NCBI GenBank assembly: GCA_964016885.1
Contig: OZ024743.1
Span: 114,576,001 to 114,640,000, forward strand
Direction: 5' to 3'
Length of the DNA stretch: 64,000 nucleotides
Origin: Eledone cirrhosa
Lineage: Eukaryota
The first letter of the stretch is position 1. Every line of letters begins with the position of its first letter. The notes under the pieces are model-generated. The model was not told the DNA's origin. It saw only the letters and a program-made list of their open reading frames with translations, and made no database searches. A program made the position numbers and the translations under genes. Positions 4,861 to 57,381 of this stretch are shown piece after piece.

Positions 4861-6865
4861 TTTATTAAAATAACAGATTAAAGTTTAAGCAAAGAATCGC
4901 TGCTTTCACCCTTAACGGGATCTTCTGAAACTAACAAAGTCAATCTGTAAACGCAGAACTGGATATTTCAAAAAACGTTGCAACCGGAGGAAGACAGGAA
5001 GACGATACTTTGGTTCGTGGAAACGTTCGCTGGCAAAGAACGGGAAAAAACGAATAATACGTCATTAATAGGAGCGGTGAAAAACAATTACGCGCAAAGA
5101 CAAAACCACGTTTATGGTATAAAAGAGGTCGTAGACTAATGTTCTCTTAGGTGGTGCATAGAGACGTTCTCTGGCAATGAACGAAAAAACGAAGATAATA
5201 AGTCATATGTGGAGCGTGGAGAACAATAGCACGCAAAGACAAAACCACGTAAATGGTATAGCAGAAATCGTAGACTAAAATTCTAACTAGGAGACCAAAT
5301 GAATCTCCGCTACAGAGTTAAGAACAAAGTAAATAAATACAATACAGAAGTAATAGAAATAAATAAATACATACACGCAAACAGATACGTACATACACAA
5401 GCATACGCAAAACCTTACCATGGGTATACAAAACCACGCACATATAAATATGTGTGTGTGTGTATGCTTGTGTACAAATAAATAAATAATTATATAAACG
5501 TATATAAGTAAATAAATACGTATATAACAAGCGCACACGCATACCTACATATAAATACACGAATGTTCGGAGACGTAAGTCAACTAAAACAAGAAGTACA
5601 CATATACACACACCCACCATACGTACGAACCTGCACACTCACGCGGACGCAAAACTCCCGTATACACATAGCCAAACCCTAAATACCAGAATATGTAAAA
5701 ATTATACGCTATAACGGTCAAATATACGTACGAGAAGGTATACATACCTTCACAAAACATACGGGTAATATATACTTACCTAAGCAAATAAGTAAAGGAA
5801 TAAAGAAAACATATACTTAGCTCCCACATCAAGACGTAAAATATCGACGTATAGATCGTGCTATCCGTTAGGGTATAACGTGGGGCTGTAATACAGGAAA
5901 GTTTTGTGCAATTTATGTTTACAAGCCGAAATTGTCTCAGATTTTTTGTTTAAGATGTGGTCAGTAGCGTAGAGTATTTCCAGGGCCTCAGCGGCGCAGA
6001 GGTCACATGGTATTTTATTTCCGTTATACGATCTAGCCCTAGCTAGGATCTCCCAGTGTAACTTATATTGGGTGTGGTTGTCTTTTAGACTCCAGATATA
6101 AGCTGAAAGTGACGTCATATTCCTTCTTAGAGGGTAACGAAAAGAATGGGTATGCATGTAAAGACGCTGCTTGAAACTATTGGCGGTTAACCCTATGTAG
6201 GCCCTACGGGACGTGGGTGTTACAACCTTACATTTGTAGACAATGTTACTAGAGAGGCATTTCCCGGATAGGGGGCAATCAGCCCGATTCCTATAATTAC
6301 AGTTAGTACTAACTACAGGGTTGCACGTGTTCCTACGGCTAGGTAGTTTAGCTAAATTTGAAGCTGTGATGTTATGTGCAAGGTTAGGAGTCGTAGAGTA
6401 AGAAATTTTAATAGTATTTCTATTAAAAATTTTACTATATTTATGTGTAGGGGGAAAATGTTTCGTAATAAGGGAAAGAAAGATCTTAGCTAATGGTGTG
6501 GCTACCTCCATATTATATGGTGGGTTAAACCAACAAATGCGACGGGATCTATTTCTTCTAGGTCTATTTTCGTACTCTGTATATGCTACCTTATCGACAA
6601 ATCCACTTCGAGCAAGAGCTTCATTGTAATAAGTGGAATGGTCGTTGAAAATGCGCTCGTTGGTGGAAAGACGGGAAAGCCTCAACGAAACGTTTCTTAC
6701 CAGGTTCTTGGTTATGCTGGCAGGATGGTTGAAATGCTTACTCATGTAATTAAGCGTATCATTCGGCTTTCTATACGGGTAATACAACCCATTCAATAAA
6801 TTGAGGGTAACGTCGAGGTACGAGCCCTCTTTGGATTTTAGTCTTCAATTTTATTATTATTACTA
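4861..6865 (-). mobile_element. 5'-truncated Penelope-like element with inverted 5' tail, in (TA)n
   Basis: ORF starts at the RT motif YLDVTLNL. The 3' UTR has a ~140 bp duplication (5021-5278) and an HHR-like motif at 4882-4932. 6821-6863 is the family tail in inverted orientation (same as 40588-40631). Confidence 0.9.
5861..6796 (-). CDS. PLE polyprotein C-terminal part (RT thumb, linker, GIY-YIG endonuclease), truncated
   Basis: WFNPPY, CNYRNRADCPLSGKCLSSNIVYKC...AYIGLTANSFKQRLYMH, CDLC and CKH. Collinear with the 738 aa ORF at 53532. Confidence 0.9.
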   Translation of the reverse strand: MNGLYYPYRKPNDTLNYMSKHFNHPASITKNLVRNVSLRLSRLSTNERIFNDHSTYYNEALARSGFVDKVAYTEYENRPRRNRSRRICWFNPPYNMEVATPLAKIFLSLITKHFPPTHKYSKIFNRNTIKISYSTTPNLAHNITASNLAKLPSRRNTCNPVVSTNCNYRNRADCPLSGKCLSSNIVYKCKVVTPTSRRAYIGLTANSFKQRLYMHTHSFRYPLRRNMTSLSAYIWSLKDNHTQYKLHWEILARARSYNGNKIPCDLCAAEALEILYATDHILNKKSETISACKHKLHKTFLYYSPTLYPNG

Positions 6866-7139
6866 TATTTATATATATATATATAGTAAAAGAGTGAAGA
6901 ATAACATGGCTGGCTGTACAATAGGGTTTATTTAAAGTATTAACAATTGTTTTATTAGTCCGGTGTGTCTAAAAATCACTGATCATTAGAAGTCACGTCA
7001 CTCGATTTTAATTACAGTCGATACCCGACCAAATCATCAGAATACTGATCTGTCTACATGATACAGTGAACTAGTATTTATAGATACATGGGAGAATAAT
7101 ATAAAGGAAACAATAATAATAACATTAATGATAATAGTA

Positions 7140-7333
7140 ATAATTGTTTCTACTTTTGGCACAAGGCCAGCAATTATCCTAGTGTATTACTGGTACTTTA
7201 TTTTATCGACCCCCGTAAGGATGAAAGCAAAGTTAACCTCGGCGGGATTTGAACTCAGACCATAAAGGGCCGTAACTATATACTGCAAAGCTTGGCGTCC
7301 GACCCTCTACCGATACTGCCAACCCATCGCCCA
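7140..7333 (-). mobile_element. tRNA-derived SINE
   Basis: Reverse complement of the 37070-37259 consensus. Confidence 0.85.
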
Positions 7334-7379
7334 ATGATAATAGTAATAATAGTAATAGTAATAGTAGTAGTATTTTTTA

Positions 7380-7905: not shown

Positions 7906-7924
7906 ACCCTATTCCTTTGGTTGA

Positions 7925-8090
7925 GGTCCACAATGGCGTATTAGGGAAATCCGTCAAGGTTAGCTTTGCCTTTCAACCTTACAGGGCGGATAAAATAAAG
8001 TAACAGTAACGTACTGGGGTCGATTTAATCGACATTCCTCTCCCCCGAAATTGCTGGCCTTGTGCCTAAATCAGAAACCATTATTATTAT
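7925..8090 (+). mobile_element. tRNA-derived SINE, 3' part
   Basis: tttgcctttcaaccttacagggcggataaaataaagt...ctggccttgtgcctaaatcagaaacc(att)n. Confidence 0.75.
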
Positions 8091-8329: not shown

Positions 8330-8374
8330 GAATTACTACTACTACCATTACTACTACTACAATTAGTATGAAGG

Positions 8375-8417
<43 letters not shown>

Positions 8418-8450
8418 AACCACCACCAACTACTACAATTAGTATGAAGG

Positions 8451-12206: not shown

Positions 12207-14365
12207 CTAGCAGCCATACCCGGCGTTGCCCGGGTGTAAGACTACCATTAGTAAATAATTTTTTTAAAGAGAAAACAACGTAGCACGAAGCCCCAAAAAA
12301 CATTTATTTTTAACCATAAGAAGCATGTGTTGTTCGATGTAAAAACGGTAAGATGTTATGGCATATGAAAGGTGAATGAGTGTAAAAGTGTAACGTTGAC
12401 GCGGTGAAGCTCCAACCGCGAACTATGCCACAAGGAAGTCACCAGCCCAAAAGTGAGTCACATGGAATTTATGACAATAATGTGAGATGTTTGGCAATTC
12501 AGGGACTGAAGTCGTTGCGGGATGACGGAGATAATGTATGACGACTTTGAGTGAAAGGTACAAATGAGGGGGGTGCCATACGTTTGCTACAGTAGAAACA
12601 TGTACATTTTTCGTTATGCATTGCGAATATGTAGGCATTCTAATGATTTATGTAGTTTGAAATACTTACCATTCTGTATAGTTATGGCTGCCAATAGAAA
12701 CTGTGACGTTGCTTTCCTTAGACTGATTGCAGTGACATAGACCAAACATGAAGGACGCTCAAAATTCCTCAACACAAATTCTGCACCAACCTCGATTGCA
12801 AAAGTAACAGAATAACGAATAGCGATTATTACGCCAAAAGAAAAATGCTGAAGCAACTTCTATTGCATGAGATACAGAAAACGAAACACAAAGTTCGATG
12901 CGACAGCAAATAAATGCTGAGGCAACTGCTGCTGCTGAGATGCAGAAAACGATTCGTAACCCTCACTGCGACAGAAAGAAAATATTGAGGCAACATATAT
13001 TACAGGAGATGCAGAGAACGAACCACAGCGTTCATTACGGCGGCATAGAAATGCTGAGGCAACTTCCGCAGCTCGAGTTGCATCAACCGAAGCAAAGCGT
13101 CAACTGCGGCAGCAAAGAAATGGGAGTCAACATCCGCAGCTCAAGCTGCATCAACCGAAACACAGCGTCAACTGCGGCAGAAAAGAACTGTGAGTCAACG
13201 TCTGCTGTTTGAGTTGTATCAACTGAAACACGGCGTCAACTGCGGCAGCAAAGACATGTGAATCAACGTTTGTTGCACGCGCTGGCGAATCCATGGAAAA
13301 CTGGCTCAACCATCCGGAGGGGAATGTGCATTTCAATCCCGTGCAGCTCAAAGTGGTCACAACGTTTACAGTCGAAATGTATGGTGTTATGAATTTCAAA
13401 AAGGCAGTGTTTCTACAATTTAGTAATTATTGAAAGCAGCGAGGTATTTGATTGTTAGGAGACGGTTTGTGTCGTAGTGTTGATTACAGAACTTCTTGGT
13501 ACACAATGTTTGTGGTTTTACCGTTTGGAGCAAATGCATAAAGGTTTCTTTTGCTTCCCACTCTGGAACATCCAACGTATAGCTGACCGTGCGAAAAGCA
13601 TGGCTCTTCTAGGTTTATTCCCGCAACGGACAATGTTTGCCCCTGAGACTTATTTATCGTCATAGCGAAACTACAACGAACTGGAAACTGGAGTCTCCTA
13701 AATGAAAAGGGGATCTCTGATGTTGACGGACAAAGGGCAATCCTTGGGATACAAACATTTCCCTCTTTTCCACACCCCGAGAGAATCGTCGCCTCGATCA
13801 AGTTTTGCGTTAGTTTATTTACTGTAAGGCGGGTTTCGTTGCAGAGTTTTGGTGGGTGTAGATTCCTCAAAAGCATAATTGGGCATCCTTGCTTAAGTTC
13901 CAATCGATGAGATGGCAACCCGGAGGGGTTCAATGAGTTAAGAAACTCAATTGGATAGTTAATTGGGTCTGTGACTGTATCGATGGACTTGTATGTACAC
14001 GAAGTTGTAGGAAGAGACTTAAGCAGTTGTCCGTTGATTTTGTCGACGGTCTCATTTTTCTGAGCCAGTATTGCCCTTTCGCACAGCCACATACAAATGA
14101 GATTAATCACCTCATTTACACAGACGAGAAAACTATATATTCTAGACTGTTTTCAAGTCCAGCAGTCGCAAGCAGTGGGAAGGACCGTTATGAGGACGGC
14201 TAGTGAAGCTTGAAATGCATAGACGGTTGTCTCCTTGCTTCTGTTGGACACCACCAGAGGGCGTTAGCCCCGGTGTTTGCATAGCTACGGCTTCCTAAAA
14301 CCATGTTTCTTTAGAAATACGAAATTTCTATACATTCTTGTTTAAAGCTATGTTTGAAGTGAAAT

Positions 14366-16650: not shown

Positions 16651-16700
16651 ATATATATATATATATATATAGTTGACGAGGGGAAACTTTTCTTCTATAT

Positions 16701-17131
16701 ATAATATATAAGAACAAAAGATGGTTAAAAGAGTTCCATGTATTTTATTATGCACATTTCAAAAACAAATATCATCATGCAATAATATTTGTGTTTTCAT
16801 CGGATAAAACAGGAAGACATGATATGAAGGTTAAAAAACACTTGTGGATAGTGCAGTTTTAAATCAACATATGATATGTTGATTTAAAACTGCACTATCC
16901 ACAAGTGTTTTTTAACCTTCATATCATGTCTTCCTGTTTTATCTGATGAAAACACAAATATTATTGCATGATGATATTTGTTTTTGAAATGCGCATAATA
17001 AAATACATGGAACTCTTTTAACCGTCTTTTGTTCTTATATATTATGTATACTCCAGTTCTACAAACTGTAGAGGGCTTCTTATCCGATATCTACATTGCT
17101 TTATTGTACTACAATAAAACTCACCTCCTAC
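16701..17131. mobile_element. Palindromic mini-element with hammerhead, in (TA)n
   Basis: ~170 bp arms centred ~16871 with an ~88 nt tail. HHR 16937-17003 (+): TTTTAT CTGATGA aaacacaaatat...atatttgttttt GAAA tgcgca TA ATAAAA. Confidence 0.9.
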
Positions 17132-18939: not shown

Positions 18940-19508
18940 CAAGGACAAATGAAAACACACACACACATAGAACAAACAACTTACAATTGAAAACACACAC
19001 AAAATGAAAACACACACAAGACAAAATGAAAACACACACACACATAGAACAAACAACCAACCAACAATAAATAAATAAATAAACAAACAAATAGAAAAAT
19101 ATAAATAAAAAAATAGAAAAATGAACACAAACACACACAGACACCCGGATGTGGCGCATGCGCAAACTGAGCACGCAGCCCACACACAAACAAAATGGCG
19201 TAGGATAGAAGAAAGGAAAGGCACAGAAACGAAGAAAGAAATCCCCAGTCACTGAAGAGGTCACAGAGTGTGTGACGAAAGAACTATGACTATATATATA
19301 TAAACAACTATCTGGTTGTGGAAACAACCAACCAACCAGAAATTTATAAATTTGTAAATTTATAAATATATAATAAATTAAATTGAAGTGAAAGCAACTG
19401 GTGCGTGTGTTTCTTATTGGCAACATGACCCTCCCAAAGTATAACAATATCGGTTTCAACACACGGTTTCAGATAAAGAATCTTGCTAAACAAATTCAGA
19501 AACGAAAT
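18940..19508 (+). mobile_element. Solo PLE pLTR with hammerhead (family of 49095 and 62418)
   Basis: HHR 19247-19291: AGTCA CTGAAGA g gtcac..gtgac GAAA gaac TA TGACT. Same 3' terminus cagaaacgaaat|(TA)n as at 50021 and 63103. Confidence 0.9.
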
Positions 19509-19972: not shown

Positions 19973-19981
<9 letters not shown>

Positions 19982-20534
19982 TAAAAAAATAATGAATAAA
20001 ACAATGAAACAGTTCCTTATATTAAACAAAAAAAATTCATTATTTAACGATCGTTTCTAGGATATATATGTGTTAGAATTGGCATGCATATTCAACAGAT
20101 CTATGTACAAAATTATACAAAATTATACAAACTATCAAAATTAAATATACATACCAAACACATATATATGCCGTCTTCAGAAATAATTATTTCTGAAGAC
20201 GGCATATATATGTGTTTGGTATGTATATTTAATTTTGATAGTTTGTATAATTTTGTATAATTTTGTACATAGATCTGTTGAATATGCATGCCAATTCTAA
20301 CACATATATATCCTAGAAACGATCGTTAAATAATGAACTTTTTTTGTTTAATATAAGGAACTGTTTCATTGTTTTATTCATTATTTTTTTAATATTTTAT
20401 CTTGACTCTGTATTCCGTTTATCTTTCACCGAAAGTGATTTTTCATTGCATCTCTTCTTTCCATGATATCCGGATTACATTGAGTTCTTCATACGGATTG
20501 GACACTACCGTAAACTCTTGGTAGATTTATCTAC
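19973..20534. mobile_element. Palindromic mini-element with large-stem-II hammerhead
   Basis: ~214 bp arms centred at 20186/20187 with a 134 nt tail. TTATTT CTGAAGA [116 nt] GAAA cgatcg TT AAATAA at 20187-20333. Confidence 0.9.
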
Positions 20535-20783
20535 ATATATATATATATATATATATTTATACATATATATATATATATATATTTATACATATATATATAT
20601 ATATATATATATTTATACATATATATATATATATATATATTTATACATATATATATATATATATATATTTATACATATATATATATATATATTTATACAT
20701 ATATAAATATATATATATATTTATACATATATATATATATTTAAATATTTATACATATATATATATATATATATATTTATACT

Positions 20784-21260: not shown

Positions 21261-21691
21261 GGAAAGTTATATTTAAAATTGTTGGGTTACAACTAGTAAA
21301 TATTTATAAATGATATAAAAGCACTCGACAAATATTTGGAGTATATTTACAACATTAAATAAATGGAAACTATATTTATAAAACCATATTTATTTCATTA
21401 TATATATTTCGGGGATATCATATTAACAATATGCTATGCCTTCCTCAGACAAAATACAATATAAACAGTTTTAACCTCTCCAAATGCTGCCTGTTTTAAC
21501 CTGCCTGTTTTAACCTCTCCAAATGCAAGTCGGTGTTATTACGGTATGTCGAATCTATTTATCTATAAAACTGTTTATATTGTATTTTATTTGAGGAAGG
21601 CATAGCATATTGTTAATATGATATCCCCGAAATATATATAATGAAATAAATATGGTTTTATAAATATAGTTTCCATTTATTTAATATTGTA
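21261..21691. mobile_element. Fold-back mini-copy of the 52231-57364 PLE
   Basis: Same two termini as the full element (aaagttata... and ...aatattgta). HHR-like motif in both arms. The junction filler is built from repeated aacctctccaaatg and ctgttttaac. Confidence 0.9.
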
Positions 21692-23724: not shown

Positions 23725-24396
23725 AAAAACAAATAACGAAACGAAATTAAATTTCGTTTCGTTTGTAACTCACTTTTGTATGACTGACGCTTAAACAATT
23801 AAGTTAAAGATGTACATCCATATATGTATACTGAAATACTAGTATGTATATGAATACACACACGTATACATATGTAGGTGTACCAAGTTTTTTCACTGGT
23901 CACTTTACTGTGAGTGGCCAGCTATTCTTTATGTAAACACACAGACAAACCGGTTTTTAGAGTCATACTGGTTTTTGAGGAAACACCTCTCCTTGTTTGT
24001 TTTTATCGTCTCCGTTGAACCGGTACTTACTCACACTCTATGCAAATTAGTCTGCCCACTACTAATTTTCATAGAAAAAGCATATAACGATATGTGCTTT
24101 TACGATTCTCTAGAGAGGCCGGAAGATAGGTAAATATTGCTGATGAGTTGTAACAACAACGAAACTAGTTCAATATTCCTTGTCTGGCTTTCTGGAGAAT
24201 AGAGGAGAGGTGTTTCCTCAAAAACCAGTATGACTCTAAAAACCGGTTTGTCTGTGTGTTTACATACAGAATAGCTGGCCACTCACAGTAAAGTGACCAG
24301 TGAAAAAACTTGGTACACCTACATATGTATACGTGTGTGTATTCATATACATACTAGTATTTCAGTATACATATATGGATGTACATCTTTAACTTA
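23725..24396. mobile_element. Asymmetric fold-back element with hammerhead in the spacer
   Basis: Arms 23800-23993 and 24203-24396, tail 23725-23799. HHR 24133-24177 (+): AATATTG CTGATGA gttg taacaa caac GAAA ctag TT CAATATT. Confidence 0.9.
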
Positions 24397-24687: not shown

Positions 24688-25098
24688 GGGTAGCGGATTG
24701 GCAGTATCGGTAGGGCATCGGACAACATGATTTGTATCATAGAGTTACGGCCCTTTATGATCTGAATTCAAATCCCGCCGAGGTTAACTATGCCTTTCAT
24801 CCTTACGAGATCGATAATGTAAAGTACCAGTCATGCATTGCGGTCTATTTAATCGACTTCCCCTTCCACTCAATTTTTTGGCCATGTGCCTATATGAGAA
24901 ACCATTATTGTGGATTGGCAGTATTAGTAGAGGGTCGGACGCTATGTGTTCCAGCATAGTTAGGTCCCTTTACGATCTGAGTTCAAATCCCGCCGAGGTT
25001 GACTTTGCCTTTCATCCTTACGGGGTCGATAAATTAAAGTACCAGTAAATAAAGTACTGGGTAATTGCTGTCTTGTGCCTAAAGTAGAAACAATTATA
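24688..25098 (+). mobile_element. Two tandem tRNA-derived SINEs
   Basis: ggattggcagtat...ttcaaatcccgccgagg...gcctttcatccttac...gataa occurs twice. Confidence 0.85.
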
Positions 25099-25116
25099 TT
25101 ATCATAGATAAAGAAA

Positions 25117-26076
25117 AATCGAAGTCAGCATATGTACAAATTTTATTGGCATATTACAATTGTTTCCATATCGATCAGCTTAGGACACAATCAAAATGAC
25201 TGGACCCGACTCTTTTTTGACATCTCGAGTTTAAATGTGCAAAGCTGTGTGTGTGTGTGTGTGCGTGCGTGTGCGTGTGCGTGTGTGTGTATGTATGTAT
25301 GCATGTATGTACGTGTGTGTGTATGTATGTGTATGTATATATAGTGATTGTAAAGTCCAGTTACGATAGGTTCACCAAAGTGAGCACTCAATGAATAGTT
25401 TCCAGTAGGTATAATATAATTGTTTATACTTTTGGCACAAGGCCAGAAAATAACCCAGTGTATTACTGGTACTTTACTTTAGTAACACACTGGGATAATT
25501 GCTGGCCTTGTGCCAAAAGTATAAACAATTATATTATTACACTACTTAGTACATCACCAATATACCTACTGGAAACTACTCATTGAGTGCTCACTTTGGT
25601 GAACCTATCGTAACTGGTCTTTACAATCACTTTATATACATACACACACATACATACATACATACATACATACATACATACATACATACATACATACACA
25701 CATACATACATACATACATACATACATACATACATACATACATACATACATACATACATACATACTGTGTGTGTATGTGTGTGTACCAGTCACACACACA
25801 CATACACACACAGCTTTTTACATATAAACCCGAGATGTCAAAAAAGTGTCAGGTCCAGTCATTTTAATTGTGTCCTAAGCTGATCGATATCGAAACAATT
25901 GTAATATGCCAATAAAATTTGTACATATGCTGACTTCGATTTCTATTAATTTATTTACACTCTGCGCACTACAGTGGCCTGAACTCTGGAATACAACCCA
26001 CACGAGATGGCCTCGTAACAACATTGAGTGCTTCGAACGGAGCGCCGCCTATAACTGTAGTTACTCACCTAACTAA
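25117..26076. mobile_element. Composite fold-back: ~300-380 bp arms enclosing a SINE-tail hairpin, plus tail
   Basis: 25117-25413 is inverted at 25561-25942. SINE-end palindrome at 25414-25536. GAAAcaattgTA and AATAAA near 25892-25916. Confidence 0.8.
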
Positions 26077-26304: not shown

Positions 26305-26959
26305 GCACATTATATATATATATAAATATATATATATATACGCACATTATATATATATATATATATATATATACACTCACACACACACACATATATATAT
26401 ATACACACACATACACACACATATATATATATATATACACACACACATATATGCACAAATATATAGGCACACATACATACATGCATACATATATACACAC
26501 ACATATATATATATATACATATATACACATATTCACACATTCCTATTCCCACAGACAGACATTCGTATGCTGTGCTGTCAAATTAGAAATATGTGGAATA
26601 TGTATTGTAGTCTGAAAGAAAAGGTTTTAGTAGTAGCTTCAATTATTGCGAATACTATCATAAGTTTTATCTGCTTGACAAATCTGAGATTGAATACTTC
26701 GAAACTAGTGATCTATCTCTAACTTTGAAAAATATATAGACAGTAAAACTATTTTGTGTATAGTATTTGAATGAATTGAATCAATAATTGTATATGAATA
26801 GAATATAATCAATCTGTAAACAATAAGTCAAATGACATATAGTTTATATCTACGGTTCACATGATAAATGTCTGAAGTGCTATAAATGAATAAAGTAGGG
26901 AAATATCCTTAGACATCACGAAATAGGTATGTACACAAACATGTATACACACACACACA

Positions 26960-27138
26960 CAATTGTTTCTACTTTTGGCGCAAGGCCAGCAATTACCTAG
27001 TGCATTACTGGTACTTTATTTTATCGACCCCGTAAGGATGAAAGGCAAAGTTAACCTCGGCGGCATTTTAACCCAAAATGGAAAAGGCCGTAAGTATGCG
27101 CCAAAGCATGGCGTCCGACCCTCTACCGATACTGCCAA
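26960..27138 (-). mobile_element. tRNA-derived SINE
   Basis: Reverse complement of the 37070 family. Confidence 0.85.
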
Positions 27139-27480: not shown

Positions 27481-27829
27481 TATGTTTTCAAACAGCGAGC
27501 AAGTTTGAAATTAGAAAATAGAAGCTTTCACGGTATTTTTTTGACTAAAGAAATTTTAGCCTGATAGTGGGGTTTAGAACCCTCACAGAAATGGAAAAAA
27601 AATGAGTATTGACGTACATGGGAGTCGAACCCATCATACTTGCTAAGAATGTAGCTTCTAATTTGAATTTGAAAAGATGGGTGATGTGTTGGTGTAATGG
27701 TAGCACAGTGGTCTGGATAATCAAAGATGTAGGTTCGACTCCCATGTACGTCAATACTCATCTTTTTCCATTTCTCTGAGGGTTCTAAACCCCACTATCA
27801 GGCTAAAATTTCTTTAGTAAAAAAAATAC
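27479..27829. mobile_element. Asymmetric fold-back element carrying a tRNA-like module
   Basis: ~99 bp arms 27533-27631 and 27732-27829, a ~54 nt tail, and TA flanks. Confidence 0.8.
27683..27753 (+). tRNA. tRNA-like pseudogene (cloverleaf with A and B boxes, loop CTGGATA)
   Basis: Acceptor GATGTGT/GTACGTC, A box TGGTGTAATGG, B box GGTTCGACTCC, and T5 about 10 nt downstream. Several stem mismatches. Confidence 0.55.
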
Positions 27830-32439: not shown

Positions 32440-32493
<54 letters not shown>

Positions 32494-32496
<3 letters not shown>

Positions 32497-32618
32497 TAAT
32501 AATAAATTTCAAGACTAAAATCCAAAGAGGGCTCGATAAGGATAAATATATATCAAATATATAAGAACCGTAGAGCAAATATTCTTTGCTTAAACTTTAA
32601 TCTGTTATTTTAATAAAT
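32494..32618. mobile_element. Mini-insertion of the 4861 PLE family: inverted tail joined to the sense 3' end
   Basis: 32494-32580 is the reverse complement of the tail at 40542-40629. 32581-32618 is the sense terminus. Confidence 0.85.
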
Positions 32619-33395
32619 ATATATATATATATATATTATACAGGCATATTTATTTATTTCAAGGTGAAGCTTTCTTCTATCGCTACTTTGGGTTTCACGT
32701 TTCCAATTTTCTTAGTGGAAATGCGAAACATGAAGCAGTCACGGAAGAAAGCTTTCAGTTTCGAATGACTGAATAAATTCTGCCTACTATTTTCTTCTTT
32801 TTCTTTTCAAAATTCAAACACACACACACACACTTTCTCTCTCTCTACACATATTTTTCATACATGTAATCAAATATTCGGTGACTAGATAGGTCAGTTG
32901 CATGTATTTCAGTATATTCCCTCACATATCTTAAGAAAATCAGGTTTTACACTATATATACATTATCTCTCTGCATTCTCTTCCAAAAGTTCCTCCGTCT
33001 CACGCAAAAAAAAGATACAAAATAGTAAGAAAAAGAAAACTACGGACATTACACGAAAGAAAAAAAAGTGATTAAAAAAAAAAAAAAAAAAAATCACTAT
33101 ATCCTCGATGTGATTGATTTCTATTGATTATTTTAATTATCTTTGCAGTTCTAGACAGATATCAAAGAACATATGGTATCTATTCCAATCAAGTATCGCC
33201 TTTCATTCTTCATTATGCAAGTAACGCAAAAAAAAAAAAAATACAAGCGTCAAAAAACTAAATATATATTATAGCGAGCTTCTATATATAGCAATGACAA
33301 CTAAAACTATATTCAATTGAACTATACACCTCTCTCTCACTTATTCTCTCCCCTTTCTCTTTCTGTACTACAACTACTACTACTACTACTCACAC

Positions 33396-36610: not shown

Positions 36611-37069
36611 AACCCAAACTTAATTATCCACAAACTATTAGATTTAATAATAACCGAAATATTTTATAATCCAGCGTTGCCCATTATATTTCCCTCCTTC
36701 TCTCCTATGCGCGTCAGTTTCTCTTCATAATTATACTGACTCTTTCAAGCATTATACAAGCATTCAAATGCAATTATTTATTAAGTTATCAGCAAAACGG
36801 AGTTAATAAACCTAGATTTTATCCTTTACTTAAACTAACCTTCACCAGCACCCAACCCGTGCTTTTCATCATTAAAAATATCACTAGGCTGCTAAACTTT
36901 ATATGAACACCAATACATAATTGATTACCACCATTAGCTACAAACATTAGCAAGCATTAATAAATCTATGTTTCCAGCACTTTCTGTTCGCTAAGACCAC
37001 GAGGTCGCGTGTACATTGGGTTCTGCACATCAAAGAACATTCTCACACTCCATTCGGGCTCGTATTATT

Positions 37070-37259
37070 GGCGGTGGATTGGCAGTATCGGTAGAGGGTC
37101 GGACGCCATGCTTTCCAGCAGAGTTACGTCCCTTTACGATCTGAATTCAAATCCCGCCGAGGTAAACTTTGCCTTTCATCCTTACTGGGTCGATAAAATA
37201 AAGTACCAGTAATGAACTGGGTAATTGCTGGCCTTGTGCCTAAAGTAGAAACAATTATT
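37070..37259 (+). mobile_element. Full-length tRNA-derived SINE (commonest family here; Nin/Deu-like central domain by recollection)
   Basis: A-box-like TGGCAGTATCGG, B-box-like ATTCAAATCC, core gcctttcatccttac.gggtcgataaaataaagtaccag, and attattg flanks. Confidence 0.85.
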
Positions 37260-37351
37260 GGTGTAGCGATGATTCCATATTCATTAAGTTTTTCATGTAT
37301 TCTTATACAGACCTTATACTTTGTGACCCCTTACTTGACATTAACTATTAC

Positions 37352-38344: not shown

Positions 38345-38561
38345 AATGATTTCTAGTATAGGCACAAACCAGGAAATTTTTTTTTGGGGGGGGGGAGTCA
38401 ATTAAGTCGATCCCAGTACGTTACTGGTGCTTTATTTTATCGACCCCGTAAGGAAAGGCAAAGTTAACCTTGGCGAGATTTGAACTCAGACCGTAAAGAG
38501 CCGTAACTGTGCTGCAAAGTATGGTGTCCGACTCTCTACCGATACTGCCAATCCACCGCCT
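38345..38561 (-). mobile_element. tRNA-derived SINE
   Basis: Reverse complement of the 37070 family. Confidence 0.85.
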
Positions 38562-38599
38562 TTAATAAGTATAATCCGCCTATAGTATTATTTTCTAAC

Positions 38600-40096: not shown

Positions 40097-40392
40097 AGTG
40101 AAATAAGATAACAAGGACGATTGGTTACTCCTTCATTACGTTTAGTGGTTGGTTACGTGCGTTTCGCCACTGATCAGCTCAAGGTTCGATCAGTATCGAT
40201 CTGACCCGACTCTGTAATCCGCGGCTCGTCAGACCCCTTGTAATTACAAGGGGTCTGACGAGTAACCAATCGTCCTTGTTATCTTATTTCACTATAATAC
40301 ATTCTAGCTCTACACATCGACACTGAAGTGAACCTAAACATTGAGTGCTCACCCGGGTGAACCTACAGTAACTCCAAGTTACACTCCCCGGA
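40097..40392. mobile_element. Fold-back element with hammerhead (deleted in the right arm) and tail
   Basis: Centre ttgtaa|ttacaa at ~40243. Minus-strand ggt CTGACGA gc...gc GAAA cgcacg TA acc. A decayed homologue lies at 24565-24660. Confidence 0.8.
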
Positions 40393-40398: not shown

Positions 40399-40452
<54 letters not shown>

Positions 40453-40460
<8 letters not shown>

Positions 40461-40630
40461 TAACATTAAAGTTTCAGAAGATCCCGTTAAGGGTGAAAGC
40501 AGCGATTCTTTGCTTAAACTTTAATCTGTTATTTTAATAAGTATTTGCTCTAGGGTTCTTATATATTTGATATATGTTTATCCTTACCGAGCCCTCTTTG
40601 GATTTTAGTCTTCACATTTATTATTATTAC

Positions 40631-40631
<1 letters not shown>
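40453..40631 (+). mobile_element. Mini-copy of the 4861 PLE pLTR with variant hammerhead and full tail
   Basis: AGTTT CAGAAGA tccc gttaa gggt GAAA gca..tgc TT AAACT at 40470-40520. Confidence 0.85.
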
Positions 40632-40686
<55 letters not shown>

Positions 40687-43377: not shown

Positions 43378-45096
43378 CTATCTATCTAAGGCGGGTAAAA
43401 TTCCCGAGATCCATGGACGAGTTCTCTCCAGCGGTCTCTGTCCCTCATTATCGCTGCCATATCCTGCATCTCCAACAGACCAGTGTCTGTCCTTAGGGCA
43501 TCAACATATGTTAACCTTGGTCTTCCTCTTCTAGTGTGTCCATGTAGGGGCTCCCAAAGGAGCACTGAGTGCAATGTCAACTCTGGTTGTCGGTGAGCAT
43601 GTCCAGCCAACCTCAGTCTCCTCTGTGTCACGTTTGAGCTGACTTTTGGGATGCTCCCATACAGCTCTGAGTTTTTCATCCTCAGTGTATACTGATTAAT
43701 GTTCAGAGCCATCCTCAGCATTCTCGTGTAGCACCCATCCACCATCTGAGTGAGTTTCTTGGTCAGTGTCCAAGTCTCAGACCCATACAGCAGCACAGAC
43801 TCCACTACAGCAATGAAGAGGCGGATTTTCAGGTCTCTACGAAGGTCCGACTTCCACACCAATCTCAAGCTGTGGCACGCCGCCCAGGCCTTGCTCTTCC
43901 TCTCAACCACATCATCCTCCGTATTCCCAATCTTTGCTCCCAAATACAGGAAGTCCTCAACCAATTCCAGCGGCTTCCCGCCTACATTAGTGATCCCCTC
44001 TGGCTTCTCAACATTCTCTACCAGATATTTTGTTTTAGTCTCATTCATTCTCAGCCCCACACTCATCGACACAGTCTCAACCTCCCGCATCAAATCCTCT
44101 GCCTCCTTCACTGTATTTGTCACCAAAACTATGTCGTCGGCAAATTCAGCATCCGATACCTTTTTCGCCCCAACTCTCCTGCTCTGAGCTGGTGCTACAG
44201 TAAAGCCAGAGTCCTGGTGTTTCTCCAGTGCAAGGCGCATACAATAGTCCACTACGATGATAAAACGGTAGGGAGCCAATGTATCTCCCTGGAGCACTCC
44301 AGCCAGTATCTCAAAGAACTCTGTCATCCCATCAGGTGTAATGACTTGGGCTTTGGTGTTGGTGTAGAGCAGTGATATTAGGTCCACTATCCTCTTGGGG
44401 ATTCCATAAGCCTGTAAGATCTTCATCAGGCAGTAACGGTCCACAGAATCAAAGGCCTTCCTAAAGTCAATGAAAACCATGACCGCAGGAAGGCACTTTG
44501 CTCTAGCTCCCTCTAATATCCTCCTCAGCATCATGATGTGACTGGTGGTTGATCTACCCTCTCTGAAGCCGTTCTGGTTGTCCCTGAGCTTCTTCTCAAT
44601 CTCAGGCTGGATCCTGTTAAGAATCATCCTGTTGAGGGTCTTTGCCACAAGTGACGTCAGTGAGATCCCCCGGTAGTTGTTGGTGTTAGAGAGATCTCCC
44701 TTCTTTGGCACTGGGACGATGTTACTGATCCTCCACTGATTCGGGGCAACTCCTTTCAACCCCGTTACAGAACCCCAGGATGATATCATCAAAATCACAC
44801 CTCTTAATCACCTCTGATGCCACTCCATCTTCTCCATGAGCCTTGCCCTCCTTGATCTTCTTCTTGGCTCTCTGAAGCTCCTCTCTGGTGAAGGGCTCTG
44901 TCTCAACATCCAGTTCCTCAAACAGCTGCCTGATCTCCCCAGTGCTCTGGGCTGTGGAGGGTGGCGCTCCTAGTAGGGTCCTAAAATGGTCTAGCCATTT
45001 CCTCTTCCTATCCTCGGGCCCCGTTCCCTGGATCTGACTCGAACACCTTTTCTTCCTCCCTGTGATCTCGTTGATGATCATCCAGCTCTCCTTACA
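43378..45096 (-). mobile_element. 5'-truncated RTE-clade LINE with (TAGA)n tail and 10 bp TSD
   Basis: TSD TCAAGTCTAT at 43368-43377 and 45097-45106. One frameshift near 44760. Confidence 0.9.
43386..45081 (-). pseudogene. RTE reverse transcriptase (frameshifted, 5'-truncated)
   Basis: PVPKKGDL..TNNYRGISL, QNGFREGRST, FIDFRKAFDSV, GVLQGDTLAP, FADD, FLYLG, LLYGSETW, RRLRLAGH, RRGRP. Confidence 0.95.
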
Positions 45097-49094: not shown

Positions 49095-50020
49095 ATTGTT
49101 ATACTTTGGGAGGGTCATGTTGCCAATAAGAAACACACGCACCAGTCGCTTTCACTTCAATTTATTATAATAAATTCATTAATTTTGGAATTTATAAATT
49201 TCCGGTTGGTTGGTTGGTTCCACAACCAGGTAATTGTTTATATATTGTCAAAGTTCTTTCGTCACACATTCTGTGACCTCTTCAGTGACTGAGGATTCTT
49301 TTCTTTGTTTTTGTGCCTCTCCTTTGTTCTGTCCTACGCCATCTTGTTTTTTTTGTGTGTGTCGTGTGCTTAGTTTGCGCATTTGTTACATCCGGGTGTC
49401 TGTGTGTGTTTATATTCGTTTATTTATTTGTTTATTTACATGTTACTGGTTGGTTGTTTGTTCTATGTGCGTGTGTGTTTTCATATTGTCCTTAATTGTA
49501 AGTTGTGATGTTGCTGTTCTGTTGCTGTTCAGCAACATCACAACTTACAATTAAGGACAAAAGGAAAATACACACGCGCATAGAGCAAACAACCAACCAG
49601 TAACATGTAAATAAACAAATAAATAAACGAATATAAACACACACAGACACCCGGATGTAACACATGCGCAAACTAAGCACACAACACACAAAAAAACAAC
49701 AACATGGCGTAGGACAGAACAAAGGAGAGGCACAAAAACAAAGAAAAGAATCCCCAGTCTCTGAAGAGGTCACAGAATGTGTGACGAAAGAACTTTGACA
49801 ATATATAAACAATCATCTCGTTGTGGAACCAACCAACCAACCAACCAACCAACCGGAAATTTATAAATTCCTAAATTTATAAGTTTAGTATAATAAATTG
49901 AAGTGAAAGCAACTGGTGCATGTGTTTCTTATTGGCAACATGACCCTCCCAAAGTATAACAATATCGGTTTCAACACACGTTTTCAGATAAAGAACTTGC
50001 TAAACAAATTCAGAAACGAA

Positions 50021-50717: not shown

Positions 50718-51436
<719 letters not shown>

Positions 51437-51450
51437 ATATATATATATAT

Positions 51451-52214
51451 ATTAGAAAGATCGAGTATCGAAAAATCGGCGCACGAGTTCACGATAAACG
51501 AGATTCGACATGAGCGGCAGAGGGCTCAATAATTCAGATGAATCAGAGCTATAACTATCGTTAAAATACCGTCACATATAGAACAAGTCTACAATCAACC
51601 ATACGATATAAAATCGATAAAGGAAGATTCGGGACAAACAGATAAAAAATATCAATAAAACAATACGTCAATAATTTAAATGAATGTAAAATCATACCCG
51701 GACCCACTAGACAGGTGTTAAATCTAGCTTCATGGGTTTCTGTAAATCCTTAGACTGTACTCTATCAGCTCACATATAAATATAAAAGCCTACTAGAGCA
51801 AGCGGAACGGAGTTTTACTTTCTCAACGAGCTTTTTTCCTGGCGGTAGAGGAGCTAACTACCAGTGAAAAACGCACATGGCATTAGACAAGGGAGATAAC
51901 CCCTATATCCGCGAAAACAATTCGAGTGAATGTGGAAATACACATATCGAATTAGAGTGCTCAATAGACATGTTAAAATAAAACAAAAGCTATTCATCAC
52001 TCAATAGAATCGACAAAAAATGAGCAATAAAATTAACTGGTGGATAGCTATGTCCAGAGCTAAATATATTAGAAAGATCGAGTATCGAAAAATCGGCGCA
52101 CGAGTTCACGATAAACGAGATTCGACATGAGCGGCAGAGGGCTCAATAATTCAGATGAATCAGAGCTATAACTATCGTTAAAATACCGTCACATATAGAA
52201 CAAGTCTACAATCT
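51451..52214 (-). mobile_element. 617 bp unit with 146 bp terminal direct repeat, in TA
   Basis: 51451-51596 is identical to 52068-52213. No ORF. Confidence 0.75.
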
Positions 52215-53286
52215 ATATATATATATATATGTAAAGTTATATTTAAAATTGTTGGGTTACAACTAGTAAATATTTATAACTGATATAAAAGCACTCGACA
52301 AATATTTGGAGTATATTTACAATATTAAATAAATGGAAAACTATATTTATAAAACCATATTTATTTCATTATATATATTTCGGGGATATCATATTAACAA
52401 TATGCTATGCCTTCATCAGACAAAATACAATATAAACAGTTTTATAGATAAATATATTCGACATACCGTAATAAACATCAACTTCATTTGAAGAGGTTTA
52501 CGCTAGCAGTGAAAATACAGAGAGAAAGAAAGAGAGAAAGAAAAGAGGGAAAAAAAAGAAAGAAAGAAAGACAAAACGAAGAAAAGGAAGAAAAAGAAGA
52601 AAAAGAAAAAGAAGAAATGCATGGGACAAAATAGAAATGCATGGGACATAAACATATGAATTTTTTAAAACTAAACATAAGATAATGAATTTTCACACAT
52701 TGTGAATACTTGTTTCATTCAGGAATACTGATATTTACAATATAGTGTAAGTTTTATAAATACTAATACATTAAAACATAGGGTTTTCTACGCCTCGAAT
52801 ATGTCTGGCTATTTTTAAATTATTTTTTTTTCTCTCTCTATATCTCTCTATATCTCTCTATATATCTCCCTTACATTAATACTTGAGCTAAATAAATAAA
52901 TAAATAAATGAATAAATAAATAAATGTATCATTGATACACTTACTCAAAATGACCTCCCACTACCTAATTTTCTATATATATATATGTATCTATCTCTAT
53001 TTCCTCTCTCTCTCTATATATATATCTCTTTCTGTCTCTTTACATGAAGCTCTTCGCTTTATCTATTTTTCCATCTCTCTATTTTGTCCCATGCATTTCT
53101 TCTTTTTCTTTTTCTTCTTTTTCTTCCTTTTCTTCGTTTTGTCTTTCTTTCTTTCTTTTTTTTCCCCTCTTTTCTTTCTCTCTTTCTTTCTCTCTGTATT
53201 TTCACTGCTAGCGTAAACCTCTTCAAATGAAGTTGATGTTTATTACGGTATGTCGAATATATTTATCTATAAAACTGTTTATATTG

Positions 53287-53352
53287 TATTTTGTCTGATG
53301 AAGGCATAGCATATTGTTAATATGATATCCCCGAAATATATATAATGAAATA
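53287..53352 (+). ncRNA. Type I hammerhead ribozyme in the 5' pLTR (copies at 57255-57320 + and 52362-52427 -)
   Basis: TATTTTGT CTGATGA agg...cccc GAAA tatata TA^ATGAAATA. 8 bp stem I and predicted cleavage after 53344. Confidence 0.85.
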
Positions 53353-53531
53353 AATATGGTTTTATAAATATAGTTTTCCATTTATTTAATATTGTAAATA
53401 TACTCCAAATATTTGTCGAGTGCTTTTATATCAGTTATAAATATTTACTAGTTATAACCCAACAATTTTAAATATAACTTTACATGTATCTTGCTCCAAT
53501 ACTGTTGAGCGCTTTATATTATAACTGAAAA

Positions 53532-55748
53532 ATGGAATTCTTTAAGATTACTTCCTCTCTAAAAGACATACCTCTACCTAGAAACAAAGACTTTGTAAAA
53601 CAACTAATAGATAAATCTGACTCTTTTATAAGGAGAATCAGGTGGCGTGCATTCCACTTTGATAAATCTAATGCAGACGAAAATATCTCGGACTTAAACA
53701 AAGTTTTCAAATCTAAAAGAAATCCACCCCCTAACAAACTTTTATCTGACTTTGAAAACGATATAATTTCTATCATACAAGGGGTCAAATTCAAGAGAAA
53801 CTTTAAAGGCCAGGAATATCTGAAAGGCATTAAGGATAACATTGAGAGCTTAGAGAAAACTGAGAAGATCTTGGTGAAATCTGACAAGACCAACAACCTC
53901 TATGGAGTGCGGAAAGACATGTATAATGGCCTCATACTGAAAGAGCTGAGGAAAAACTTCAAGGTAGCAGATAAGGCCGAACTTGAGAAAATGAATGTTG
54001 AAGCATCTTGTATAATGCATGAGTTGGAAATTGAGAACAGAACACAACCTTTCGTGCCCAGGAAACCGAAGATCAATATGAAGGACCACAAGAGGAATTT
54101 TGAAAATGACCTGCCAGTTAGATTGATCGCACCTTCAAAATCGGACCTGGGCAAATTAAGCAAAAACATTCTTGACAGGGTGATACTGCAAATTAAGAAC
54201 TTGGATTGTGTATCTAACCTGAGCTTGTGGAAGGGAACTGGAGAGGTTGTTGAGTGGTTTAGGCAAATTAAATATGACAATAATAATAGGTTTATTCAAC
54301 TTGATATAGCTAACTATTATTCTTCTATTACCCCTAGTCTACTAAATAAGGCACTAAATTACGCATTCAAACATACGGACCTAACTAGCAAAGAAATGCA
54401 TATTATATTATCGGCTAGGAAAACTTTGATAGAATTTAATGACAAATTATGGACCAGAGCAGATAGAGATAGCAATTTTGACATAACTATGGGATCTTCC
54501 GACTCAGCTCAGGTAACTGACCTTGTGGGCTTATTTTTAATCAATTCGCTACATAGGAAAATACCTGGTACTACCGGAGGTTTATATAGGGATGACATGC
54601 TTTTACTTATTAATAATAATAACCCTGAACTAAATAGAAAATGTAAACAAATTACAAAATTTTTTAATTACTTTAACCTTAAAATAGAAATTGAGAACAA
54701 CCATAGAATAGTCAATTTCCTAGAGATAACATTAAATCTCAACACATGTCTCCACTATCCTTTTCACAAGTTGAATGAAAACTTAAACTATGTCAACTTT
54801 AACTCTAACCACCCCAGATCTGTCAAAAACACTATAGTAAACTCAGTCCAAAAACGTATCTCTAGGATCTCGTCGAATAGAAAGATTTTTGACGAAAAGG
54901 CCCAATACTATAATGATGCACTAGCTAGGGCAGGGTATGCTGATAAGATTGTGTACATAGATAATGATAGACAAACTAAACAAAGTAACAACTTTTTTAA
55001 TTACGGCAACAACATTAACAACTATAATAGAAAGCATTACAATAATTCCAAAGGACAAAAAAGAAATAGAACTAGGAACATAATTTGGTTTGCCCCCCCC
55101 CCTTTCTCACTAAACATTAAAACCCACATCGCTAAATTATTTTTCAAAGCTCTTGATAATCGCTTCCCTAGAACACATAGGTATCACTCAATCTTCAATA
55201 GGCATACAATTAAATTAACCTACTCATCCACCAAAAATTTAGCACAAAATATTAATAGAATAAATAATAGGAACTTAAAACCTACTGATAATAGCATAAA
55301 TAATATACAAGTTAACAAATGTAACTGTAGAGATAGATCTAAATGTCCGTTAAATAACAACTGCTTAGTTAAAAATATAGTATACAATTGTAATGTTAAT
55401 ACTGACTCTAATTCTTTTAACTACGTCGGTTCCACATCGACGGAATTTAAACTTCGCTATAATAACCACAAGAATTCTTTCACAGATCCAAATAAAAAAT
55501 CTTCAACGGCACTATCAGGGGTACTCTGGCAACTTAAGCTAGATAACGTTAGATATTCGACGGCTTGGAATATAGTCTCAAGAGGGATTCCTTTTAATTC
55601 ATCCTCTGAGACATGTGACCTCTGCGCAGAGGAGATATTCTTTATACTAAAATCTAAAAATTCCCTTAACCTACGGACAAATTTATTCAGTTGTTGCAAA
55701 CATAGATTAAACTCAACGTTTAAATATAAATTTAAATTTAAAATGTAG
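53532..55748 (+). CDS. PLE polyprotein: reverse transcriptase plus C-terminal GIY-YIG endonuclease (738 aa)
   Basis: KSDKT, PVRLI, IQLDIANYYSSI, TMGS, GLYRDD, NFLEITL, CNC-x5-CPL, IVY...YVGST, FKLRYNNH, CDLC and CKH. No stops. Confidence 0.95.
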   Translation: MEFFKITSSLKDIPLPRNKDFVKQLIDKSDSFIRRIRWRAFHFDKSNADENISDLNKVFKSKRNPPPNKLLSDFENDIISIIQGVKFKRNFKGQEYLKGIKDNIESLEKTEKILVKSDKTNNLYGVRKDMYNGLILKELRKNFKVADKAELEKMNVEASCIMHELEIENRTQPFVPRKPKINMKDHKRNFENDLPVRLIAPSKSDLGKLSKNILDRVILQIKNLDCVSNLSLWKGTGEVVEWFRQIKYDNNNRFIQLDIANYYSSITPSLLNKALNYAFKHTDLTSKEMHIILSARKTLIEFNDKLWTRADRDSNFDITMGSSDSAQVTDLVGLFLINSLHRKIPGTTGGLYRDDMLLLINNNNPELNRKCKQITKFFNYFNLKIEIENNHRIVNFLEITLNLNTCLHYPFHKLNENLNYVNFNSNHPRSVKNTIVNSVQKRISRISSNRKIFDEKAQYYNDALARAGYADKIVYIDNDRQTKQSNNFFNYGNNINNYNRKHYNNSKGQKRNRTRNIIWFAPPPFSLNIKTHIAKLFFKALDNRFPRTHRYHSIFNRHTIKLTYSSTKNLAQNINRINNRNLKPTDNSINNIQVNKCNCRDRSKCPLNNNCLVKNIVYNCNVNTDSNSFNYVGSTSTEFKLRYNNHKNSFTDPNKKSSTALSGVLWQLKLDNVRYSTAWNIVSRGIPFNSSSETCDLCAEEIFFILKSKNSLNLRTNLFSCCKHRLNSTFKYKFKFKM

Positions 55749-57381
55749 TATATTTAGTTTGATTTATATTTATATGAGAACTAGCCGATAAATCTTTTGA
55801 TTCCTAAATCTTTGATTCCCTCTTTTTACTCTTTTTATTGTTTATTTTATTTTATTTATTTTTATTTTTATCTAAACATTCCTCATGAAAAATTAAGCTA
55901 CCCTAAAAGCCGATGCTCCAAATTTTTTGAATTAACCTTACACTAAATAAACTTCTATATTAAATATAGGAACATATGTAGACATTATTGGACATCATAA
56001 TCTTTTTGCGATATTCTTTGCTAGATGTGATTTGATAGATAATTTTTGGCTTTGTCTTGTAATGAACTTGGCAATATATTGTCAATTAACTTTGAAGGGT
56101 TGTTCTTTGTGGTTTATTTTTATTTTCATTTTTATTTTTATTTTTATTTTTATTTTTATTTTTATTTTTATTTTTATTTTTATTTTTATTTTTATTCTTT
56201 TAGTATTGTAGTATTCTATAATATTTTTATTTTTTATTTTATTTTTAATTATTTTTAATATTTTTATATGTAAATTTTTAATACGTAATATTTTTTAATA
56301 CGTAGTATTTTTAATATGCAATATTTTTATTATGTAATATTCTTTCGTAATATTTTTTTAGTTTTCTATTCTATATTTTTATATATTTTTACTTATTATT
56401 ATTATTATTGTTATCTTTGTTTATAATATAATATATATTTTCGATTAGTATATTGAAATCTGCTCTCTATTTCTGCTTGATAGATAATCTTGTAGAGTAA
56501 TCGCAAGAATTATAATACGCTCAAATTTTTATACCACATTGAGAATGTTTTCCGGTATCGTAGAATTTGCAGAGTGAATCAGTTGGATTCACATTGATGT
56601 TTGTAGCTGTCACATAAACATATGAATTTTTTAAAACTAAACATAAGATAATGAATTTTCACACATTGTGAATACTTGTTTCATTCAGGAATACTGATAT
56701 TTACAATATAGTGTAAGTTTTATAAATACTAATACATTAAAACATAGGGTTTTCTACGCCTCGAATATGTCTGGCTATTTTTAAATTTTTTTTTTCTCTC
56801 TCTATATCTCTCTATATCTCTCTATATATCTCCCTTACATTAATACTTGAGCTAAATAAATAAATAAATAAATAAATGAATAAATAAATAAATGTATCAT
56901 TGATACACTTACTCAAAATGACCTCCCACTACCTAATTTTCTATATATATATATGTATCTATCTCTATTTCCTCTCTCTATATATATATATATCTCTTTC
57001 TGTCTCTTTACATGAAGCTCTTCGCTTTATCTATTTTTCCATCTCTCTATTTTGTCCCATGCATTTCTTCTTTTTCTTTTTCTTCTTTTTCTTCCTTTTC
57101 TTCGTTTTGTCTTTCTTTCTTTCTTTTTTTTTCCCTCTTTTCTTTCTCTCTTTCTTTCTCTCTGTATTTTCACTGCTAGCGTAAACCTCTTCAAATGAAG
57201 TTGATGTTTATTACGGTATGTCGAATATATTTATCTATAAAACTGTTTATATTGTATTTTGTCTGATGAAGGCATAGCATATTGTTAATATGATATCCCC
57301 GAAATATATATAATGAAATAAATATGGTTTTATAAATATAGTTTTCCATTTATTTAATATTGTATATATATATATATATAT

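Follow-up and report, generated by a model that had tools for sequence, protein, structure and literature searches.

The window analysed here is the whole 64,000-nt stretch of contig OZ024743.1 of Eledone cirrhosa; it is rich in (TA)n repeats, and the host genome spans 3.0 Gb. Judged by their sequence motifs, the repeats inserted in these tracts are Hydra-clade Penelope-like retroelements (PLEs), present in tens of thousands of copies. Each family has two fixed outward-facing 3′ ends, A and B, and this is a real feature of the elements. Nearly all resolved two-ended insertions carry one end of each type. The best reading of this layout is probably programmed twin priming, in which the two target strands would each prime a complementary DNA (cDNA) at its own site on one element RNA.

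The 53532 family is represented by a full-length insertion carrying an intact 738-aa open reading frame (ORF). Scoring of 7,997 candidates gave 91 relatives, of which those with names belong to Argonauta hians. The YRDD motif of the reverse transcriptase (RT) is present in 35/35 aligned relatives. The best five fold matches of the predicted structure (pLDDT 87) are all telomerase RTs, with E values of 1e-9 to 1e-8. With this ORF the Pfam search returned no families and the PDB sequence search no matches; the Pfam scan, in which the endonuclease domain was not queried by itself, gave no GIY-YIG profile match. The endonuclease region shows an IVY...YVG motif, and Y618, Y631, G633, H646, E701 and N713 are conserved. 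A homodimer prediction for residues 1-480 scored 0.00, which speaks neither for nor against dimerization.

The clade was assigned because RWR, DKT, YRDD, CxCx5C, CxxC and CxH are the motifs listed for it in PMC8557442. The traits given there are DKT replacing DKG, RWK, a CxCx5C linker, CxxC and CxH in the endonuclease, no CCHH inside the GIY-YIG core, insertion in (TA)n and a canonical hammerhead ribozyme in the pseudo-long terminal repeat (pLTR). The 738-aa ORF has RWR37 and DKT118 (at these columns, DKT occurs in 31/35 and RWK or RWR in 28/35 aligned relatives), CNC-RDRSK-C at 597 (CxCx5C), CDLC at 695 (CxxC) and CKH at 722 (CxH). No second cysteine pair lies between its GIY and YIG positions, which are thus without CCHH, and the element ends pass into TA repeats. 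Hydra elements are mostly shorter than 3 kb (PMC8557442), a tendency rather than a strict criterion; the monomers of the two families studied here, with long untranslated regions (UTRs), measure 3,968 and 3,258 bp and exceed that size.

The second of these, the 5861 family, has a 708-aa ORF at locus L133, 42% identical to the 738-aa ORF. Exact anchors matched the genome 28,414 times for the 53532 family and 39,844 times for the 5861 family (a 22-mer just upstream of A). In the general PLE layout, the 5′ end carries a truncated copy in inverted orientation, and the tail is often one-sided (PMC8557442, PMC3846280). Partly tandem pLTRs with an adjoining inverted copy and a one-sided tail are found at 52231-57364 and at loci L133, L126 and L163. 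The insertions of the two families in the window are as follows.

52231..52635, minus strand: inverted arm of the full-length 53532-family insertion; its 3′ end is site B (52231), and it holds the 87-nt tail and 318 nt of pLTR.
52636..52645: filler at the junction, in which the adjoining arm end is duplicated over a short length.
52646..53396, plus strand: direct pLTR on the upstream side; it shares 98.7% identity with 56612-57364 and ends at internal site A (53396).
53200..53212, plus strand: initiator (Inr)-like TCACT motif; several 53532-family arms stop at its A, a likely transcription start.
53283..53352, plus strand: hammerhead-like motif in the pLTR, by sequence (CTGATGA ... GAAA; core 53295-53331).
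53397..53483, plus strand: tail between sites A and B, with a small hairpin ACTC...GAGT at 53402-53421, 6 nt after A.
53493..53510, plus strand: the hairpin recurs here (GCTC...GAGC), 10 nt beyond site B.
53532..55748, plus strand: intact ORF of 738 aa, telomerase-like RT (YRDD) with a C-terminal GIY-YIG-type endonuclease carrying Hydra-clade motifs.
55749..57364, plus strand: 3′ UTR and downstream pLTR, with the outward 3′ end at site A (57364) passing into (TA)n.
21261..21691: short 53532-family insertion; B arm 21261-21473 (minus), duplicated filler, A arm 21512-21691 (plus).
2834..3293: near-palindromic insertion of an older subfamily, A left and B right.
4861..6820, minus strand: 5861-family A arm, truncated at its 5′ end, with a C-terminal ORF remnant at 5861-6820.
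6821..6863, plus strand: tail-only B arm (+47..+92), in blunt junction with the preceding A arm.
32494..32618: 5861-family insertion; tail-only B arm 32494-32580 (minus) stopping at A, and a 35-nt A arm (plus), with a 3-nt overlap.
40453..40631: 5861-family insertion; short A arm (minus) and a B arm (plus) starting at -70, a likely capped transcription start.

All twelve terminus coordinates named in the sequence-only reading are boundaries between element and (TA)n, to within 1-4 bases common to element and target. As mapped, the 53532-family ends are 2836 (A) and 3292 (B), 21261 (B) and 21689 (A), and 52231 (B) and 57362 (A). A corresponds to 53396 and B to 53483 in the upstream direct repeat, 87 nt apart; across families the spacing is 60-128 nt. 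For the 5861 family, positions are counted from A = 0. The insertion at 4858-6866 joins an A arm reaching -1948 to a B arm covering +47..+92, that at 32490-32620 joins a B arm of +92..0 to an A arm, and that at 40448-40633 consists of a short A arm and a B arm from -70. The tail-only pieces at 6821-6863 and 32494-32580 adjoin the other arm directly (overlaps of 0 and 3 bases, no (TA)n in between), and therefore are not separate insertions. The known PLE tail is bounded by sites A and B.

Further loci were chosen by anchors near A or B, taking the first listed places on contig C1 for anchors upstream of A, in the tail and in the 53532 family. The 200 stretches fetched were mapped to single real copies, and the pairing counts below rest on these loci; the sample covers 3′ ends near the anchors rather than far upstream. 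The predicted pair of sharp terminus peaks was recovered: 201 of 234 outward 3′ ends of the 5861 family lie at A (100) or B (101). Two of the other 33 turned out to be A ends, and many represent breaks where an insertion is nested or a locus ends. A third end at +37 (L142, L160) proved to be an alignment artefact, both loci having A ends. Genome-wide, 22,860 exact matches pass from A into TATATA and 14,833 continue into the tail, compared to the 39,844 matches of the upstream 22-mer; reversed-pattern controls gave no match.

Pairing of the two ends is close to exclusive. Mapping of 161 blocks of the 5861 family gave 56 A/B, no A/A, no B/B, 73 one-armed and 32 other blocks, and further mapped loci added 8 A/B and 1 A/A. 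Inspection by eye of the 32 others recovered 2 A/B in which one end had been misplaced and 9 that later insertions had broken up or that were divided between two loci, together with 1 B/B (L240) and 1 doubtful tail/tail (L223, left out of the count), the rest being unassigned. In total, 75 of 77 resolved two-ended insertions of this family are A/B (1 A/A, 1 B/B; p about 2e-20 against free choice). Because hints in the position lists had led to the fetching of both same-type loci, 2/77 is if anything too high. The 53532 family gave 44/45 A/B (1 A/A) when nearby ends were paired, a few of these pairs resting on proximity, and 31/31 by contiguous mapping. Three more families gave 20/21 (9 A/B and 1 B/B; 7 A/B; 4 A/B), and all 14 complete loci newly seen among the extra-G matches described below are A/B. 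One locus, L257, was considered as A/A and ruled out as a mispairing. About 97% of resolved two-ended copies are A/B, and none of the observations named beforehand as speaking against twin priming (broadly spread termini, frequent A/A or B/B pairs, tail-only pieces that are separate insertions) was made. The broader claim that both ends of each insertion are 3′ ends holds for the copies originally named and fails for the 73/161 blocks that are one-armed by mapping. Two causes contribute to the many one-armed copies: poor mapping of a diverged subfamily, and direct joining of the 5′ end to (TA)n.

The position-ordered sample contained 55 simple junctions, after 4/59 that could not be anchored and the reference L133 had been set aside. 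In 38 of them the A arm extends beyond the B arm on the 5′ side, in 14 the B arm is the longer, and in 3 the two are equal; the B arm is tail-only in 27/55. Snap-back is therefore excluded for most copies, and the earlier statement that a tail-only arm is no snap-back copy of its neighbour holds for these 27 B arms. Thirteen of the 27 stop within -8..+14 of A, and 11/33 B-only copies likewise stop within about 14 nt of it, as though synthesis primed at B had run into the point at which the other strand was engaged. This is the geometry of L1 twin priming (PMC2837659), but for a second site that is fixed. The junctions are distinct in 54/55 cases. Fillers occur in 25/55, and microhomology of at least 3 nt was found in 11/29 filler-free junctions compared to 6% in the null. 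The fillers reported at 21473-21525, 49517-49529 and 52635-52646 are all present; they fit end joining in general and are not diagnostic of joined cDNAs.

One prediction, that of independent arm lengths, had to be rejected. Leaving out tail-only arms, both arms end by -74 in 17 insertions, both run beyond it in 10, and only 1 is mixed (p 8e-7). This shared upstream limit points to a shared template and does not refute twin priming. The arms of one insertion also share variants, at 16 of 2,705 sites, a value reached by 0/2,000 shuffles; 18/18 arm pairs agree at a diagnostic site, and arms within one insertion differ by about 2%. These sequence comparisons fit an origin of both arms from the same source.

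Among 50 arms of the 5861 family reaching -64, 18 stop in -64..-74, a rate blurred by private variants of the reference copy near -62, compared to 1/32 in the next 11 nt. The outermost common stop is at -70, the A of TTAGTT, which we take to be an initiator-like motif. The base before it is T in the template, yet it is G in 10/13 arms stopping there. Genome-wide, the base preceding the -70 stop is G in 1,451 and C in 508 matches (G and C were counted, A being left out), and in 30/30 G matches the sequence upstream of the extra G is not that of the template. Exact 24-mer counts across -70 are 19,868, 11,071 and 4,852, with a drop at -70 and again upstream, where subfamily variants confound the count. 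The extra G is found on both arms in 5/27 loci. Such an untemplated 5′ G is taken as copying of the cap (PMC4859970), and on both arms it likely reflects two cDNAs each running off a capped RNA. Six arms of the 53532 family stop at the A of TCACT, a sequence of the pLTR called Inr-like in PMC3846280.

Sites A and B each consist of a short TA-like patch common to element and target, within which the ends vary by a few bases. Both sites are followed by a hairpin of the form RCTC...GAGY. In the 53532 family it starts 6 nt from A and 10 nt from B; the corresponding distances are 7 and 8 nt in the 5861 family, and in a third family it lies about 9 nt beyond B. The hammerhead-like core reads CTGATGA...GAAA in the 53532 family and CAGAAGA in the 5861 family (40473-40498, L133), with A replacing the usual U. 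The Rfam scan at gathering score gave no hammerhead, and free folding did not yield the hammerhead fold. Ribozyme cleavage was considered as the cause of A, B or the -70 stop and rejected, since the cut sites predicted by eye lie at about -52 and -27. The 8 bases used by a recurring -68/-27 junction (L032-L057, near base 1500 of each locus) also form both strands of the predicted hammerhead stem I; the junction was seen in both polarities, once as B/B.

The preferred mechanism can be outlined as follows. Both strands of a (TA)n site would be cut. The two target 3′ ends would each serve as primer for a separate cDNA on a single element RNA, with synthesis starting at A from one end and at B from the other, and the hairpins and TA patches perhaps setting the start sites. 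RT primed at B may often stall where RT primed at A began, giving tail-only arms. Short copies would arise where the A and B sites lie near the capped 5′ end of the mRNA, the cDNAs running off there with one base added opposite the cap. Joining of the two cDNA ends would follow, by microhomology or filler end joining, and priming on a single strand may leave ordinary one-armed copies. The insertions show the form expected of twin priming, with two inverted arms from one element, outward 3′ ends and an end-joined centre. The claim that each target strand primes a cDNA at its own RNA site before joining is supported by the sharp ends, the A/B pairing and the extra G on both arms. Use of the same RNA fits the shared variants and the shared upstream limit, which two RNAs of one locus would fit as well. 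A wider version seems to us somewhat doubtful as a whole. Two hairpin copies would dock two RT centres on one RNA, each taking one strand of a double-strand cut, and the two first-strand cDNAs would be joined with no ordinary second-strand priming. An A/B pair near the capped 5′ end would yield mostly short palindromic stubs, and all endonuclease-bearing PLEs would owe their inverted pLTR and one-sided tail to this process.

Several observations weigh against programmed twin priming, for which the evidence given here is genomic. Same-type pairs exist, as A/A (L301, L270) and as B/B (L240, L283, L032, perhaps L223), L032 coming from a separate, biased search. With 73 one-armed and 32 unclassified blocks among 161, insertion does not require priming on both strands. 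Additional copies of the hairpin motif lie elsewhere in the two elements (2 and 4 copies), and target-site duplications are unreadable in (TA)n flanks. In 6/30 G matches the extra G could be templated by the partner arm. It precedes the stop in only 1/6 arms of the 53532 family ending at the Inr-like A, and the G signal therefore rests on the 5861 family. Shared variants could also reflect gene conversion between arms. In vitro (PMC11167929), the start site was not seen to differ between strands or to share homology with the cleaved DNA, a behaviour that does not by itself predict A/B exclusivity. Finally, an extra G on both arms implies two rounds of copying of the same 5′ stretch, and strand displacement would be needed to achieve this on a single RNA. 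Dual priming, proposed for L1 in PMC2837659, accounts for this without displacement: two cDNAs would be made on two RNAs, likely from the same source locus, held in an asymmetric complex, one starting from A and one from B. It also accounts for the B arms that read past A (28/55), themselves a difficulty for a single RNA, and the rare A/A and B/B insertions fit it. It offers no natural cause for 97% A/B or for the piling up of B arms at A (13/27 tail-only arms), and the scarcity of short/long mixed pairs (1/28) and absence of discordant variants (0/18) would be expected only if both RNAs shared locus and pLTR copy. We regard it as unlikely, though as the likeliest of the alternatives.

In a fold-back model, which we consider quite improbable, one cDNA started at B would copy itself, or self-prime on antisense RNA (PMC3846280), and the endonuclease would trim the second arm at A (the 'EN-mediated resolution' of PMC8557442). 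Near-perfect palindromes are indeed present (2836-3201, 16696-17050, 51048-51400), A is a TA-like patch resembling the target, the B arm is the longer in 14/55, and the recurring -68/-27 junction follows self-complementary sequence and gave the B/B insertion L032. A copy of the B arm cannot outreach that arm at its 5′ side, yet the A arm does so in 38/55, and 27/55 B arms hold no A-arm sequence at all. The palindromes centre on a fixed base, with the extra G on both arms and 1-17 unpaired bases between, as for two run-offs, and A-only copies with plain 5′ ends occur. That two-armed units were copied whole from a few pre-formed inverted masters, in the manner of miniature inverted-repeat transposable elements, or are palindrome assembly artefacts, is scarcely credible. 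The -68/-27 junction recurs among the best matches of a biased search, and L330 and L331 have the same junction. Against this, 54/55 junctions differ in the position-ordered sample, a diversity that refutes inverted masters as a general cause; arms within an insertion differ by about 2%, both polarities occur, and later insertions of short interspersed elements (SINEs) break single arms.

The window holds insertions of three further families with the same organization:

16696..17126: third family, palindrome with a one-sided tail, A left and B right.
19976..20535: fourth family, palindrome with a tail, A left and B right; the polarity is reversed in a sister copy at 50878-51436.
49097..50020: fifth family, with a 60-nt tail, A left and B right, and a filler at 49517-49529; related arms end at 19506 and 63102.

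At 61000-63102 (plus strand), a broken ORF with a YIG motif is followed by the pLTR and 60-nt tail of the 49097 family and represents a further PLE family besides 53532 and 5861; the hairpin after A resembles GTTTC...GAAAC there, not RCTC...GAGY. More palindromic or two-armed inserts in TA repeats lie at 6889-7041, 57383-57549, 58672-59007, 23735-24394, 40098-40292, 25104-25954, 27533-27829 and 2150-2236, and several begin in the TA run ending another PLE copy (6889 after 6863; 57383 after 57364). Near the centre of the 27533-27829 palindrome, a tRNA-like Rfam match (27683-27753, plus strand, 40.9 bits) is the sole one found. A 153-bp direct repeat (51444-51596 and 52061-52213, 99%) lies between the insertion ends 51436 and 52231. 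An older subfamily resembling 5861 (85-91% identity) recurs at loci L100, L110, L114, L115, L128, L132 and L244; its neighbouring sequence is the same each time, as though it belonged to a larger composite repeat. An abundant SINE-like repeat occurs at 7145-7331, 24695-25099, 26953-27137, 30703-30821, 37063-37264 and 38410-38567, and its relatives break into PLE arms with short target duplications at L122, L204 and L240. The window also contains a non-LTR retrotransposon RT remnant (43386-44807, minus strand; RVT_1, E 1e-32), presumably RTE-like by its motifs, and a Pif1 helicase 2B domain fragment (13484-14152, minus strand) beside 68-bp tandem repeats (12841-13269), possibly Helitron-like.

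PMC8557442 names the origin of the tandem and inverted PLE structures and of the tail as unsolved, and PMC11167929 leaves the steps after first priming open. Twin priming from two fixed sites, if true, would explain this long-puzzling back-to-back layout. With about 28,000 and 40,000 exact anchor matches of the two families, the process would also account for many short palindromes within TA tracts. Sharp predictions for the existing in vitro assay follow from the A/B rule, from the extra G on both arms and from the upstream limit common to them, and the window offers for this assay an intact ORF together with its own RNA signals. The inverted pLTR with a tail is already known, as are two RT start sites bounding the tail (PMC11167929). 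What is new, judged from genomic copies, is a testable variant of target-primed reverse transcription with a strict one-site-per-end rule and signs of two run-off cDNAs. Our literature search, in the text available, found no paper applying twin priming to PLEs (matches for 'twin priming' with 'Penelope' concern telomerase, human elements and L1), nor A/B exclusivity, the asymmetry of arm reach, the extra G on both arms or the shared source variants and upstream limit in print.

Compared to the Hydra-clade elements of Craig et al. 2021 (PMC8557442), with tails of 30-40 nt and lengths below 3 kb, the tails here are 60-128 nt and the monomers 3.3 and 4.0 kb; in the available part of that paper the tail is put down to endonuclease resolution and no end-pairing counts are given. 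In vitro, the RT of PAc, a Poseidon element of Anolis carolinensis, starts at two sites, the tail being the stretch between them, and both target strands are nicked or cleaved and extended (Frangieh et al. 2024, PMC11167929). As here, the start sites lie inside the RNA at the pLTR-ORF junction, near a stem-loop, and the target is AT-rich. PAc belongs to another clade, and its tail measures 30-40 nt; in vitro its start sites showed neither a difference between strands nor primer homology, and the two sites are not linked, in the text available, to the inverted layout or to one site per strand. The Penelope elements of Adineta vaga (Arkhipova et al. 2013, PMC3846280) have direct pLTRs with an adjoining inverted pLTR, a tail at the 3′ end of one inverted pLTR, junction palindromes and the Inr-like TCACT. 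Self-priming on an antisense template is proposed there, whereas most junctions described here exclude it. Finally, in twin or dual priming of L1 (PMC2837659), both target strands prime cDNA and give head-to-head arms with outward 3′ ends and an end-joined centre, and in twin priming the 3′ arm often stops at the place of the second primer. The first L1 site is the poly(A) tail, the second arises by chance internal annealing, and the event is a variant. In the PLE families of E. cirrhosa, both sites are fixed and internal, the event concerns about half of the insertions, and the two arms may overlap up to the 5′ end of the RNA.

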